Part shown: one piece after another, positions 688 through 58,239 of the stretch | How positions within the stretch are numbered: position 1 is the first letter of the stretch | Layout of the letters: every line of letters starts with the position of its first letter | Assembly (NCBI GenBank): GCA_965219415.1 | Contig: CBDCNP010000002.1 | Location: 3,040,001-3,104,000, forward strand | Reading direction: 5' to 3' | From: Candidatus Marinacidobacterales bacterium | GTDB lineage: Bacteria; Acidobacteriota; Vicinamibacteria; Marinacidobacterales; DATDRI01 | Length of the DNA: 64,000 bases | Translations under genes and position numbers: made by a program | Notes under the pieces: model-generated | Databases searched by the model: none | What the model was told of the DNA's origin: nothing | Seen by the model: only the letters and a program-made list of their open reading frames with translations

Positions 688-728
688 CTACCCGCAGCCG
701 CGTAGCAACACTTGATGGCGCAAGCACC
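688..728 (-). mobile_element. Isolated family A (IS1-like) terminal repeat
   Basis: CAACACTTGATGGCGCAAGCACC is the reverse complement of the TIR at 44546. Confidence 0.8.
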
Positions 729-8366: not shown

Positions 8367-9740
8367 CTATCTGTAAAACCGGCCATCCTTGATCACATGA
8401 AGGACCCCGTGCTTGAGCAGCGTGATGTCCTGCAGGGGGTCGCCATCGACGACGATCAGGTCGGCAAATTTCCCTACCTCGATCGTTCCTAGATCGGCGT
8501 CTACCCCCTGCATCTGTGCCGCTCGTAAGGTCGCGCTCTGTATCGCCTCCATCGGAGACAATCCCACCTCGACCAAGTTCGCGAGTTCTCGAGGCAACGG
8601 AACGTGGAAGTTGACGGGCGTTCCCGAGTCACAGCCAGCGACGATCTGCTCCCGGCCTCCTGCCACGATGAATCGACGGAACTTTTGCTTGACAACCTTC
8701 ATTCGCTCACGCGCACCGATCGCCCATGGAATGGACTGAGGACTACTCCAAGACCGGCGCATATAATCGTAAATGTCTGGAGGAAACTGCTTCCGGAAGC
8801 GAGGGTGATCCAGAATCTCTGGAAAATCCAGGACACGGACGTAGGACTGGCGCATCTCCATCGTAGAGACGAAGTAGGGACCGCGGAGAATGTTCGACGA
8901 GGGACCCAGGGCCACCGGCTTCGCACCCCGTACGAGTAGCCTCATGTCCTCGTCGCTGTACTCGGATAATGGACTGGCTGCGAAGACAACGTGCAGTCTG
9001 TCAACACCGGCCCGAACCGCGGTGCGCATGGCGCTCACGTGCCGCGCCTCGGCGTCCACTCCAATGCCAGCCCGATGGGCGGCATCCACCAGCGCCTCCA
9101 ACACCGGCAGTTTCCAAAATCCCCCGATTTGGATCTGATCGATGTTTGATGCGATGAGCTGTTCCGCGGCCTCGCGCGCCGCTTGTGGAGTCGTCAACCG
9201 ATAGAAGTTCGAAACGCCGTCCGCGGCACGATCGCGTTCGGGGTGATTCTCGATGCTTCGCCCTGTCAGGTAGAGACGAGGACCGAGTCTCTTCCCCGAT
9301 TCGATCGCCTCGCGAAGCTGCTTCTGTTCCTCGAGTGGACCGCTCGCATTCCGGAAGCTTGTGACACCGGCCATCAGATTGAGCTCCGCTACGATGGCCA
9401 TGATCTCCGTCTTCCGATCCGCGAAGTGGGAAACGAACTCGCCAGGGTTCCCGGCTCCTATGTGAAGGAGATGACCGTGCGACTCCCAGAGTCCGGGCAT
9501 GACCGTCATGCCATTGGTGTCGATGACCCGCGCGCCAGAAGGAATGGCTATCGCTCCGACCCGGCCGATTGCGTCGATTCGACTGCCCTTCACCAAGACG
9601 ACGGCGTTGTCGAGAGGTGGACCTCCGTACCCGTCGACGAGCCTCCCCCCGGCTAGGGCAAGGGTTTCCGAGCGGGCATCTGCTGATGTGGTAAGCACAC
9701 AAGCGATAAGAACCGAGGCCGCCGATGTCGAGCGGATCAT
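8367..9740 (-). CDS. Secreted amidohydrolase family protein
   Basis: Signal peptide; VMPGLWESHGH; EAIQSATLRAA; GTIEVGKFADLIVVDGDPL. Confidence 0.85.
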   Translation of the reverse strand: MIRSTSAASVLIACVLTTSADARSETLALAGGRLVDGYGGPPLDNAVVLVKGSRIDAIGRVGAIAIPSGARVIDTNGMTVMPGLWESHGHLLHIGAGNPGEFVSHFADRKTEIMAIVAELNLMAGVTSFRNASGPLEEQKQLREAIESGKRLGPRLYLTGRSIENHPERDRAADGVSNFYRLTTPQAAREAAEQLIASNIDQIQIGGFWKLPVLEALVDAAHRAGIGVDAEARHVSAMRTAVRAGVDRLHVVFAASPLSEYSDEDMRLLVRGAKPVALGPSSNILRGPYFVSTMEMRQSYVRVLDFPEILDHPRFRKQFPPDIYDYMRRSWSSPQSIPWAIGARERMKVVKQKFRRFIVAGGREQIVAGCDSGTPVNFHVPLPRELANLVEVGLSPMEAIQSATLRAAQMQGVDADLGTIEVGKFADLIVVDGDPLQDITLLKHGVLHVIKDGRFYR

Positions 9741-9896
9741 CGGGTCACACTCGCTCCATTATCGTCACCACGCCCTGACCACCACCGATGCAGAGGGTGC
9801 TTCCGCCATCAAGTGATGGAATGGACTCCTCCACTGACATAGACGGCATCGATGTGCCAAAGTCAGTCGAATACGCATCGAAAAGGAGGAGTCCAA

Positions 9897-10928
9897 ATGA
9901 AAGATACGACAATCGCTGTGGATCTTGCAAAGAACGTCTTCGAGATTGCCATCTCGGGAGAAGCGGGGAAGGTGTCCAAGCAACTCCGTGTGAGTCGACC
10001 CAAATTGGTGTCGTTCTTTGCCAAACAGAGCGCTGCCACCGTGCTTCTCGAAGCCTGCGGCTCGGCTCACTTCTGGGCAAGGACGTTCCGAAGGTTGGGA
10101 CACGACGTCGTCCTGCTCCCACCTCACCTCGTGAGGCCGTATCGACGCGGGAGCAAGAACGACCGCGCCGACACGAAGGCGTTGCTCGAGGCCTACAGGA
10201 ACGAGGAGCTTCTTCCCGTACCCATCAAGTCCGTGCACCAGCACACCCTCGCTGCGCTCCATCGCCTGCGCTCAGGATGGCTCTCCACACGGACCGCACG
10301 CATCAATGCCGTACGCGGGCTCCTGCGCGAACTCGGATTCATCATCCCAAAGGGCGCTCACTTCGTCGTGCCCGCCCTCTTCGAACTCGTCGAAGACGCT
10401 GATTCTGATTTGCCCGACGTGCTCCGTTCGCATCTCCGTGATGCCTGCTCCGAGATTCGAGAACTCAAGGACAAGTGCGCTAGCATCGAGCACGAGCTCA
10501 AGGCGCTCACCAAGCAGCTTCCTGAAGTCCAACGACTTCTCGCCATTCCCGGCATCGGACTTCTGGCCGCGACCGCCATCGTGGGCTTCGTCGGCGATCT
10601 TCGCCGCTTCCCATCGGGGCGCCGCTTCTCGAGCTACCTCGGCCTAGTTCCCAAGGAAAACTCCAGTGGCGACATTCGCCGCCTCGGACGCATCACCAAG
10701 CGTGGCGACTCCTACCTCCGTATGCTCCTCACCCAGGGCGGGCGCGCCGTGCTCCGCGCGGCGAACGTCAGCAAGAGCCCGCCCGACAAGCTCCGCGCCT
10801 GGGCTCGGAAGGTCCACCGCTCGCGGGGACACAACAAGGCCGTGATTGCTGTCGCCAACAAACTCGCCCGGATCGTCTGGGCCGTCTCCACCCGCGAGAG
10901 TGAATTCCAGTCGCCGGTGGCCGCTTAG
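9897..10928 (+). CDS. IS110 DEDD recombinase/transposase
   Basis: AVDLAKNVF, LEACG, KNDRAD, IPGIG, YLGLVPKENSSG, ITKRGD; GGAGG RBS. Confidence 0.95.
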   Translation: MKDTTIAVDLAKNVFEIAISGEAGKVSKQLRVSRPKLVSFFAKQSAATVLLEACGSAHFWARTFRRLGHDVVLLPPHLVRPYRRGSKNDRADTKALLEAYRNEELLPVPIKSVHQHTLAALHRLRSGWLSTRTARINAVRGLLRELGFIIPKGAHFVVPALFELVEDADSDLPDVLRSHLRDACSEIRELKDKCASIEHELKALTKQLPEVQRLLAIPGIGLLAATAIVGFVGDLRRFPSGRRFSSYLGLVPKENSSGDIRRLGRITKRGDSYLRMLLTQGGRAVLRAANVSKSPPDKLRAWARKVHRSRGHNKAVIAVANKLARIVWAVSTRESEFQSPVAA

Positions 10929-10974
10929 ATTTAGAGGCTCCACTTTCGTGTTTTCCTTTTTCCCTTCCAAAAGA

Positions 10975-11160
10975 GGCTGCGACGATACCCATCCAACTGA
11001 TGGCGTACCGGTCGGACCGGCGCGGGGTCAAGCCAATAGCAACACTGGCCCTAAGAGGTCGTTCAAAGTGATTGGCTCCTCGCGCGCGGATTTTCCATCA
11101 TGGCCCGGAGCACCCAAGACGCTCCTCACTGAGGCCGAAGATACGTTTGCAGTCTGACCC
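10975..11160 (+). ncRNA. Bridge RNA / seekRNA of the IS110 element (boundaries approximate)
   Basis: Stem AGCCAAT/ATTGGCT encloses target-matching segments; second loop carries TTCCATCAT and AGATACG, matching the circle junction. Confidence 0.8.
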
Positions 11161-11486
11161 ACTCGTCACGACGCGATGGATGCGCAGCTTCGATGGAAGA
11201 TTTATTAAGAAAGGGGCGTGACTAGAAAGAAAGGGGCTTGACTAGAGGAGTCCAGATATGTTGCTACGCCGTGTTTGAATGCTAGTGTCAGCTGGCCTGC
11301 CTGTGTCGGCGAACGCCATTAACAATGATGTCGGCGTGCACACCAAGGTGTCTCTGAACGTCAGGCACCGTGTGGTCAGCCCAGCCCGCATCGTCGAAAG
11401 AACTGCGTCTCTCGAAATCGGGCCCCCAAACTCTAGCACACGAGCAGGTTACGCGGCAGCCACCAACACTTGATGGCGGAAGCACC

Positions 11487-11681
11487 CAATGACTCCGGTG
11501 TGGTCGAGAGCGAGAAACCAGGGACCGGAAGGCCCTGTCGCTGAGAGGTGGATGGTCCCCTTCGCAGTGGTGGAGTCGTAGCGCACCCACCCAGCCTCTT
11601 CTCCCAAGGGGCGGCGATAGCCGTTCTGCCAGGCGGCTTTCCGGCATTCCTCAGCAACAACGAAGCCTTGAGGTATTTCGA

Positions 11682-11685
<4 letters not shown>
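11487..11685 (-). pseudogene. N-terminal fragment of the fourth gene of the helicase-methylase operon (possibly HNH nuclease)
   Basis: GTG start overlaps the methylase TGA; EECRKAAWQNGYRR... cut by the MITE; nuclease call is from recollection of similar N-termini only. Confidence 0.45.
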
Positions 11686-15683
<3,998 letters not shown>

Positions 15684-44545: not shown

Positions 44546-45698
44546 GGTGCTTCCGCCATCAAGTGTTGCTACGCGGCTGCGGGCAGTGGTACAGGTGCGG
44601 AAGAGACCGGGTTGCGCGTCCCAGTGAGCAGGAAAACCTCGATCCGCGACCACAAAGGAATCGTCATCGCCAAGAAGATGTCTCGAAAGGTGAGCCGTCG
44701 CGTCGTCAGACCGGCTTGCATAGCCGGAGTTCGGATCTCACGTCCGAACTTCAGAGCTCCGTGCGGTCGGACGAAGTTGTAATAGCAACGGAGCAACTCG
44801 TCTCGAAAGGTATGCCGAGCTTTGCCGGATGGTCAGATTCAACCGCTCGATGAACGACGTGTTCAATGTCGAAGAGTCCTCGGAGTTATTGAGCGCGTCT
44901 TCGAATCGCCACGCGGCTCCGTGCAGCGCTCTCCGTTCGACCTTGATGATGCGATCGTTCCTGCGCGTTTTTAGGACCTGGCCGTAGAGACACGCTGGAC
45001 CGAAGAAGCGACGGATGACCTTCTGGTAGAATTCGAATCCATCCGTGACGATCAAGGGAAGACGCTCGAAATTCATCCGTCTCGAAAGGTCGCGAAACAG
45101 AGCGTGAGTGTTCCGGTAGCTTCGCCTTCCCGTCACCGTCGATGGCCAGAGCCGAGACCAGACCTCGATCGTAACGAAGACCCAACTCGGTGTCTTCTTG
45201 TTGCCCGCGAACGTGCGAATCTCGTCGGCTTGAAGCTCTTCGGCAGCGAAGCCAGCGATCCTTCTGTGATTGAATCGACGACACACTTGGGCTGCCTTCT
45301 CGAGCCAGCGGGCGACGGTGTTCCAGGCAATCCCTTTGATCCGGGAAATCGCGGAAATGCTGACACCCTCGACTCTGAGAGCAATGACCCCATCGAAAGT
45401 AGCTCTTCGATGTTGGAGACGGTAGTAGGGCGTGCCTTTCGTCGAAGAGAACGTCTTTCCGCACTCGCCGCACCGGTATCGACGGCGTTTCCCGGACCTG
45501 GTTCGGTAGAATCCGTGGCGAACGATGTTTCCGGAACTGACTTTGCCCCGCAACGGACATGCGGGATTGAGACATTTGCTATTCTTCACTTCGGCTCGGC
45601 CCTGACGATGAGAGAACTGTGTCTTCGGAATTCTGGTTCAAACTCTAGCACGCAGACCGGTTAGGGGCTGGCCGCCAACACTTAATTGCGGAAGCACC
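44546..45698 (-). mobile_element. Family A parent: IS1-family element; transposase 45589-44569 with a 3' frameshift/deletion
   Basis: 23-bp TIR GGTGCTTCCGCCATCAAGTGTTG; zinc ribbon (CLNPAC...CGEC), HTH, ADE, TDG, IERLN, YYNFVRPH. Confidence 0.88.
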
Positions 45699-57995: not shown

Positions 57996-58239
57996 GGTGC
58001 TTCCGCCATCAAGTGTTGCTACGCCGTGTTTGAATGCTAGTGTCAGCTGGCCTGCCTGTGTCGGCGAACGCCATCAATAAGGATGTCGGCGTGCACACGA
58101 AGGTGTCTCTGAACGTCAGGCACCGTGTGCTCAGCCCAGCCCGCATCGCCGAAAGAACTGCGTCTCTCGAAATCAGGCTCAAACTCTAGCACACGAGCGG
58201 GTTACGCGGCAGCCACCAACACTTGATGGCGGAAGCACC
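57996..58239. mobile_element. Family A 244-bp MITE, intact (empty IS110 target)
   Basis: Perfect 23-bp TIR GGTGCTTCCGCCATCAAGTGTTG. Confidence 0.92.

Follow-up and report, generated by a model that had tools for sequence, protein, structure and literature searches.

Here we describe an insertion sequence (IS) of the IS110 family, of IS1111 type, that is very probably active, or was so until very recently, and directed by an RNA guide into one particular kind of transposon end. It lies at positions 9816-11260, on the plus strand, of a 64,000-nt stretch of a Candidatus Marinacidobacterales genome (GenBank assembly GCA_965219415.1, contig CBDCNP010000002.1, positions 3,040,001 to 3,104,000 of the forward strand), which we call the window and whose coordinates are used throughout. 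The target is the TTGCTA-type variant of a terminal inverted repeat (TIR) common to an IS1-like element and to its derivatives, miniature inverted-repeat transposable elements (MITEs). This reading is carried by the family membership of the element, by its site specificity and its discrimination between two near-identical ends in the source genome, by a covarying RNA scaffold, and by the correspondence between right-target guide and flank in relatives, all of which were directly observed.

An IS1111-type element inside a MITE terminus

The IS is 1,445 bp long and carries one long open reading frame (ORF), preceded by an 81-nt leader and followed by a 332-nt 3' non-coding region (NCR). Its parts, and those of the MITE that hosts it, are the following:

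9796..9815, plus strand: outer 20 bp of the left TIR of the host MITE, forming the left target half; 9814-9815 is the TG common with the IS
9816..11260, plus strand: the IS, present in the genome as 30 essentially full-length and 3 truncated copies of 99-100% identity
9816..9821, plus strand: left terminal extension ATGGAA, predicted to be read by the loop strand at 11093-11101
9822..9831, plus strand: left subterminal inverted repeat TGGACTCCTC, identical in ISPa25
9897..10928, plus strand: transposase gene, 343 amino acids, with D9, E52, D89, D92 and GLVPKENSSG (residues 249-258, including S257-G258)
10929..11260, plus strand: 3' NCR, 332 nt
11238..11243, plus strand: TTGACT, a possible -35 box picked out by eye only
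11245..11254, plus strand: right subterminal inverted repeat GAGGAGTCCA; the extension GATA (11255-58) comes next, and after it TG
11261..11486, plus strand: rest of the host MITE, starting with the right target half TTGCTA; its right TIR is at 11467-11486

The right boundary carries an ambiguity, in that the TG at 11259-11260 can be assigned equally well to the left side (9814-9815). Assignment to the IS110 family, already made in the preliminary description of this DNA, is upheld by profile searches. Both the N-terminal DEDD (RuvC-like) domain (PF01548 DEDD_Tnp_IS110, 45.9 bits, cut-off 29) and the C-terminal domain (PF02371 Transposase_20, 85.5 bits, cut-off 21.3) score above their Pfam cut-offs, and the NCBIfam model NF033542, "IS110 family RNA-guided transposase", gives 302.9 against a cut-off of 140. 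The C-terminal half of the protein additionally aligns in phmmer with the solved IS621 and ISCro4 transposases, placing SSG over their ESG; D9, E52, D89 and D92 were placed by reading the protein rather than by alignment to a solved reference.

Within the family, the traits are those of the IS1111 subgroup. The long NCR stands 3' of the stop codon (332 nt, vs 81 nt 5' of the start), and the transposase, at 343 amino acids, falls in the range of 330-350 that we used for comparison and carries the motif GL-P----S(t)G. The perfect subterminal repeat is 10 bp, one base under the 11-13 bp described as usual for IS1111 elements in sections of PMC11187229. The terminal extensions, taken from known empty sites, are 6 bp on the left and 4 bp on the right plus the shared TG, an architecture that ISPa25 has alike; the figure used for comparison is 7 (or 6) bp on the left and 3 bp on the right, and this published value may rest on another end convention or on another subgroup.

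The insertion point lies 20 bp inside the left TIR of a 246-bp MITE. The preliminary description had proposed that removal of 9816-11260 restores such an element, and in silico excision does so, yielding 246 bp of which 235 of 246 aligned columns equal the intact MITE at 57996-58239. A larger element of 1,153 bp (44546-45698), which has a 283-amino-acid ORF, carries the same TIR at its ends, and the TTGCTA-type end is the one downstream of this ORF. "IS1-like" is a working label for the larger element, as the ORF product reaches 86.4 bits with the NCBIfam model transpos_IS1, below the cut-off of 100, and has only a weak HTH_23 match in Pfam.

Target specificity in the source genome

A whole-genome BLAST search with the IS returned 36 pieces, comprising the 30 essentially full-length copies, the 3 truncated copies that keep a left end, and fragments. 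Every one of the 33 left ends abuts the sequence CATCAAGTG at one and the same place in the TIR, whereas the 10 nt farther out take 30 different forms. On the right, TTGCTA comes next in 28 copies, TTGGCG in 1 and an internal tandem joint in 1, the 3 truncated copies being without a right end. By the preliminary description, copies at unrelated sites would have spoken against its reading; instead, the same TIR adjoins all 33 left ends here and 45 of the 52 left junctions of close relatives (93-98% amino acid identity) in five other genomes.

The outer 20 nt of the TIR has 436 genome matches at up to 2 mismatches, and its ends come in two variants, alike as far as AGTGTTG and told apart by the three bases after it, which fall inside the 10-nt match to the predicted guide described below. 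Of the TTGCTA-type ends, 28 of 109 are occupied (81 empty), vs 1 of 296 TTGG-type ends (295 empty), with an odds ratio of ~102 and a Fisher p of 1.5e-16. The earlier suggestion that the guide fits the TTGCTA-type end and not the TTGG end is supported by this genome-wide occupancy, which is 26% or 0.3% depending on three bases that lie within the right-target guide match. In the window itself, the empty sites claimed earlier were recovered as exact copies of a 17-mer at 701-717 (minus strand), 44557-44573 and 58007-58023; at up to 3 mismatches this 17-mer has 5 window matches vs 0.16 expected.

The exact target 10-mer occurs at 115 sites in the genome: 81 in the TIR, 1 in a TIR with an indel, 31 in the guide-encoding DNA of the IS itself and 2 in unrelated sequence, the last two both empty. 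The guide-encoding sites deserve a remark of their own. The DNA that encodes the right-target guide (11037-11046, minus strand, and the 30 other copies) is a 10-bp copy of the target on the opposite strand, and 0 of 31 are occupied; the left flank at these sites is CCAGTG, not CAAGTG.

The shared site could also reflect descent, if a single ancestral insertion in one MITE or IS1-like copy had since been multiplied as a passenger by the IS1-like transposase. Some copies do share flanks beyond the TIR: three agree over 59 bp on the left, and the window copy has a 2.75-kb counterpart around position 4171993 of contig C3, where window 8739-11486 is duplicated at 99.6% identity (1,077 bp of upstream sequence, then the interrupted TIR, the IS and what remains of the MITE) and the duplication stops exactly at the right TIR of the MITE. 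The outer flanks are nevertheless distinct in 30 of 33 copies, and the sequence after TTGCTA shows at least three host types (CGCGGC in 12, CGCCGT in 7, CGCCGC in 3). Moreover, the IS copies are 99.3-100% identical, and a comparison of two host MITEs shows differences in 11 of 246 columns; the IS copies being far more alike than their hosts, the insertions must be later than the divergence of the MITEs, recent and largely independent. Relatives are also found in non-TIR sites that have the guide-matched motif alone. In a test for hitch-hiking, the duplications seen were the 2.75-kb segment and chimeric flanks, neither of them a clean MITE-plus-IS unit, so that the test speaks neither for nor against a passenger. 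The insertion parts the outer 20 bp of the TIR from its remainder, leaving a split end that may no longer be mobilisable. Taken together, we consider spread by descent highly improbable and repeated targeting by the IS itself by far the better account.

The distribution of the target, and of the IS with it, is very uneven. Of the 436 TIR matches, 2 fall on contig C1 (2.07 Mb), and few are found in the first 2.5 Mb of contig C3; the IS copies number 32 in C3, 1 in C2 and 0 in C1, with GC content equal across contigs. Behind this distribution there could be a compartment within the genome, or two strains may have been joined in the assembly.

A separate observation concerns partial tandem copies, in which IS right ends are joined inside the IS (C3:3315125-3316853 in the source genome; L088, L096, L097 and L113 in a related genome). 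The internal joints (for instance ahead of ATTGCTGTCGCC within the transposase gene, or at position 1159 of the IS) look like recombination at target look-alikes.

A predicted two-loop guide RNA in the 3' non-coding region

The preliminary description assigned the 3' region to the two-loop layout of bridge RNAs (also termed seekRNAs) and located its guide strands by reading. On folding, the region forms an outer helix around two domains. The predicted elements are:

11010..11159, plus strand: predicted bridge/long-seekRNA scaffold, 150 nt, closed by helix P1 (11010-17/11152-59)
11020-27/11078-85, plus strand: helix P2
11031-37/11071-77, plus strand: helix P3
11046-50/11057-61, plus strand: helix P4
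11086-88/11148-50, plus strand: helix P5
11102-05/11133-36, plus strand: helix P6
11107-11/11121-25, plus strand: helix P7
11037..11046, plus strand: putative right-target guide TAGCAACACT, 5' strand of the target loop, complementary to top strand AG-TG-TTGCTA
11066..11070, plus strand: putative left-target guide AAGTG, 3' strand of the target loop, in top-strand sense, which would pair with the bottom strand
11093..11101, plus strand: putative left-end donor guide TTCCATCAT, 5' strand of the donor loop, complementary to A-TG-ATGGAA
11139..11145, plus strand: putative right-end donor guide AGATACG, 3' strand of the donor loop, matching AGATA-TG at 6 of 7 positions with the mismatch at the first core position

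The strings named earlier were all recovered at these positions (11037-11046, 11066-11070, 11093-11101 and 11139-11145), including the stem AGCCAAT (11031-11037)/ATTGGCT (11071-11077), and the layout itself was borne out by covariation of the helices and by a right-target loop that changes with the flank in relatives.

To assess the structure, 18 relatives were aligned, a seven-helix structure was written by hand on the window sequence, and a covariance model was built that realigned 26 matches, 23 of them distinct. Across these 23 sequences, 91.3% of cells in the 40 pairs of the seven helices are paired, vs 32-47% with the 3' partners displaced by 1-3 columns. Changes on both sides are seen in 21 of the 40 pairs, and none of 500 shuffles gave values as high as those observed. 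These figures lean towards the structure, since the alignment had been fitted to the model and the sequences share ancestry. An RNAalifold prediction on a MAFFT alignment was rejected, as it had only 25 pairs and paired the two donor strands together.

The order of the strands is also that of the subgroup. The strand that would pair with the top strand comes first in each loop (11037-46 before 11066-70, 11093-101 before 11139-45), which is the IS1111 order: in the parts of PMC11187229 that treat these elements, the top-strand match is placed 5' of the bottom-strand match, and IS1111-type elements are described as carrying their NCR on the 3' side, as having subterminal repeats and as producing a long RNA of 145-170 nt. 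The IS1111 bridge RNA is likewise located in the right end in the relevant portion of PMC11208160.

As a control for chance, the NCR was put through 1000 dinucleotide shuffles, 10 of which matched one strand or the other of the 33-bp target over a run of at least 10 bases; the equivalent control for the circle junction is uninformative because the NCR includes the right end itself.

Guide-to-flank correspondence among relatives

Relatives allow the predicted guides to be compared with sites other than the TIR. Among the close relatives, 7 of 52 left junctions lie outside the TIR, and two of these elements, L106 and L107, retain only CAAGTG before and TGTTGCT after the junction, with nothing of the outer TIR; sites with the guide-matched motif alone are as predicted by short-guide recognition. 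A variant at 93-94% identity has the left end ATGGGA and the guide UUCCGUCAU, both changes being wobble-compatible, and its right-end guide is the exact AGATATG.

In more distant relatives of the same phylum (46-62% amino acid identity) the scaffold is kept and the loop sequences differ. Over 15 elements, the right-target guide matches its own right flank with a mean longest exact run of 6.8 nt vs 4.0 nt for non-cognate flanks. Runs of 7-9 nt are found in the families of the window element, L061, L068, L065, L084 and L036, and of 6 nt in L063. The right-end guide tracks the right end as well, with AGATA in most, TATA in L084 and ATATA-GG in L073.

The relatives further account for the imperfect donor guide. 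In most of them the core reads TG where the left end joins and CG where the right end joins, with the second base G constant, so that the odd C of AGATACG, noted in the preliminary description as a 6/7 match to the junction AGATATG, is a family-wide state at a variable first core position and matches the CG right junction of most relatives. The IS621 core is described in the part of PMC11208158 concerned with it as nearly invariant at the second base and tolerant at the first. By individual element, TG on the left with CG on the right is seen in 10 of the 14 relatives with both junctions (among L036, L061-L069, L076, L082 and L084); L065 and L066 have TG at both, while the left and right junctions read GG and CG in L071, and TG and CG in L067.

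Several points weigh against a guide role for the predicted RNA and should be held beside the above. The left-target guide is only 5 nt, and its strand fits cognate flanks barely better than others (3.4 vs 2.7). The right-target runs are just 4-5 nt in L082, L076, L071 and L062, that is, in 4 of ~11 distinct families, each with a single insertion site. The right-end guide of the window element mismatches its own TG core at the first position, and from one family to another the core moves by 1-2 nt with respect to helix P4. Covariance-model E-values are rough, and a search of Rfam 15 with window 9700-11600 at E up to 1 gave no relevant match, only a chance microRNA match inside the transposase gene. 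Finally, RNA libraries offer only metatranscriptome contigs from relatives, and such contigs reveal neither whether the window copy is transcribed nor where an RNA would end: four runs from marine sediment and sponge contain pieces of transposase gene at 90-99% similarity together with parts of the NCR, and these were not used as evidence. As a side observation from one such run (X2), similarly set aside as evidence, a contig matches the outer scaffold helices (11007-11157) with ~99 differing letters between them, and looks like a relative with other guide loops.

A rival reading is recognition of the TIR through protein alone or through DNA structure, the NCR matches being coincidental or regulatory (e.g., antisense to the host transposon), for which one could cite that the guide role is deduced here from sequence, that one match is so short and that 1% of shuffles yield a 10-nt match; yet we regard it as exceedingly improbable, as four separate matches fall one to each strand of a pair of conserved internal loops, relatives have differing sequences at the one right-target loop position that match their differing flanks, the TTGCTA/TTGG discrimination hangs on 3 bases within the 10-nt match, and the RNA is reported as essential in experiments on ISEc11, ISKpn4, ISPa11 and IS621 (portions of PMC11187229 and PMC11208160).

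Proposed mechanism of insertion

Under RNA guidance, the 3' NCR would be transcribed into a structured RNA with two internal loops. In the donor loop, the 9-nt strand would pair with the core and the left end, while the 7-nt strand would match the right end and the core. The DEDD/serine recombinase, held by this RNA, would then join the abutted IS ends to the TG inside a TTGCTA-type TIR, namely the end downstream of the IS1-like transposase gene and the corresponding end of its MITE derivatives, giving an orientation-specific insertion 20 bp inside the TIR. For this element, production of the RNA, its binding to the protein and the manner of strand exchange are all inferred, the chemistry by analogy with work on IS621 and ISEc11.

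Origin of the target specificity

Three relatives at 57-62% identity (L061, L064 and L069) sit in an attC-like repeat with an imperfect palindrome and GTTAGG-like core ends. At locus L170 (G348:C78:1-6574), in another member of the phylum, the attC-like repeat recurs ten times in a single orientation at spacings of ~470-830 bp, small ORFs filling the gaps, and this arrangement looks like an integron cassette array; the repeat is tentatively taken to be attC from its resemblance to the GTTRRRY core. ISPa25, which of the named elements in the plasmid collection comes closest, sits within a class 1 integron with a cassette on one side and qacEdelta1 on the other, and is described as targeting an attC site in the part of PMC11187229 that deals with it. 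With relatives in attC-like repeats and ISPa25 in an integron, the lineage looks naturally retargeted to an IS1-like terminus, and the likeliest history would be a natural rewriting of the target loop from attC site to transposon end.

A broader synthesis, which we offer tentatively and would not expect to hold in full, casts the lineage as a specialised transposon parasite that arose from an attC-targeting IS1111 ancestor by rewriting of the guide loop. Such a parasite would cap about a quarter (28 of 109) of one IS1-like/MITE end and, by severing the outer 20 bp, could act as a brake on the swarm or, alternatively, travel as its passenger; the TG-left/CG-right junctions may in turn record which DNA strand is transferred in IS1111-type insertion. 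A sister element that reads the TTGG end was also looked for, and the RNA model run over the source genome found only 31 copies of the IS itself among the 150 of ~2,189 first-look candidates that were scored.

Comparison with named systems

IS1111 members that target the TIRs of other transposons have reportedly been in print since 2003, when Partridge and Hall are said to have found IS4321/IS5075, of the IS1111 family, in the TIRs of Tn21-family transposons. By description, the window element resembles these in specialising on the TIR of another transposon in one orientation; unlike them, its host is an IS1-like element with its MITEs rather than Tn3-family transposons, and it uses one of two TIR variants.

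The nearest named relative in the plasmid collection is ISPa25, with 45.9% amino acid identity over 99% of the protein. The left ends are the same for 17 nt (ATGGAATGGACTCCTCC) and the right ends near-identical, with GGAGTCCATATA and then CG in ISPa25; the order of gene and then RNA is the same, and the 3' region of ISPa25 fits the RNA model over all 162 positions (100.9 bits, E 5e-22). In contrast to ISPa25, with its attC target in a class 1 integron, the window target loop would read an IS1-like TIR, and a protein identity of only 46% makes it a different IS.

The seekRNA systems ISEc11, ISKpn4, ISPst6 and ISPa11, by their description in parts of PMC11187229, share the 3' NCR, the subterminal repeats, a transposase of ~340 amino acids with GL-P----SG, and the placing of the top-strand complement 5' of the bottom-strand match; the 150-nt P1-closed structure compares with their RNA of 145-170 nt. 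For these systems the RNA, the ribonucleoprotein and transposition are demonstrated, whereas the window element is known from its sequence. The IS621 bridge RNA, as treated in portions of PMC11208160 and PMC11208158, likewise has two internal loops and an invariant second and tolerant first core base, the core being (T/C)G in the window family vs CT in IS621. Unlike IS621, the predicted window RNA lies in the right end and not the left, its strand order per loop is reversed and its subterminal repeats are longer; in the transposases, only the C-terminal halves align (phmmer, E ~1e-7).

Both the mechanism and the class of element are thus already known from PMC11187229 and PMC11208160, and nothing about the mechanism is changed here. 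Literature searches, with supplementary target lists outside their coverage, found no IS1 or MITE terminus as a target, and the combination of "IS110 family", "MITE" and "bridge RNA" yields a paper on ISPpu9. The window element provides a natural high-copy data set on the guide specificity of an IS1111-type element, with 33 insertions and ~376 empty sites of two near-identical kinds in one genome. It also points to a plausible natural path of retargeting from integron attC sites to a transposon terminus, and presents a mobile element living on another mobile element in an uncultured marine acidobacterium.

Further features of the IS and its surroundings

Joining of the IS ends in a circle would put TTGACT (11238-11243) 18 nt upstream of TGGAAT (9817-9822; TGA precedes), making the pair a possible candidate for a junction promoter. 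Just inside the right end, at 11208-11245, there is a direct tandem repeat of ~19 nt in which AAGAAAGGGGCNTGACTAGA occurs twice, with TTGACT in the second unit; two copies of the IS in the source genome, and the copies in one related genome, have a single unit. Adjoining the MITE, window 11682-15683 on the minus strand holds a 1,333-amino-acid ORF with an NPPW motif, which on reading has the look of a fused restriction-modification enzyme.

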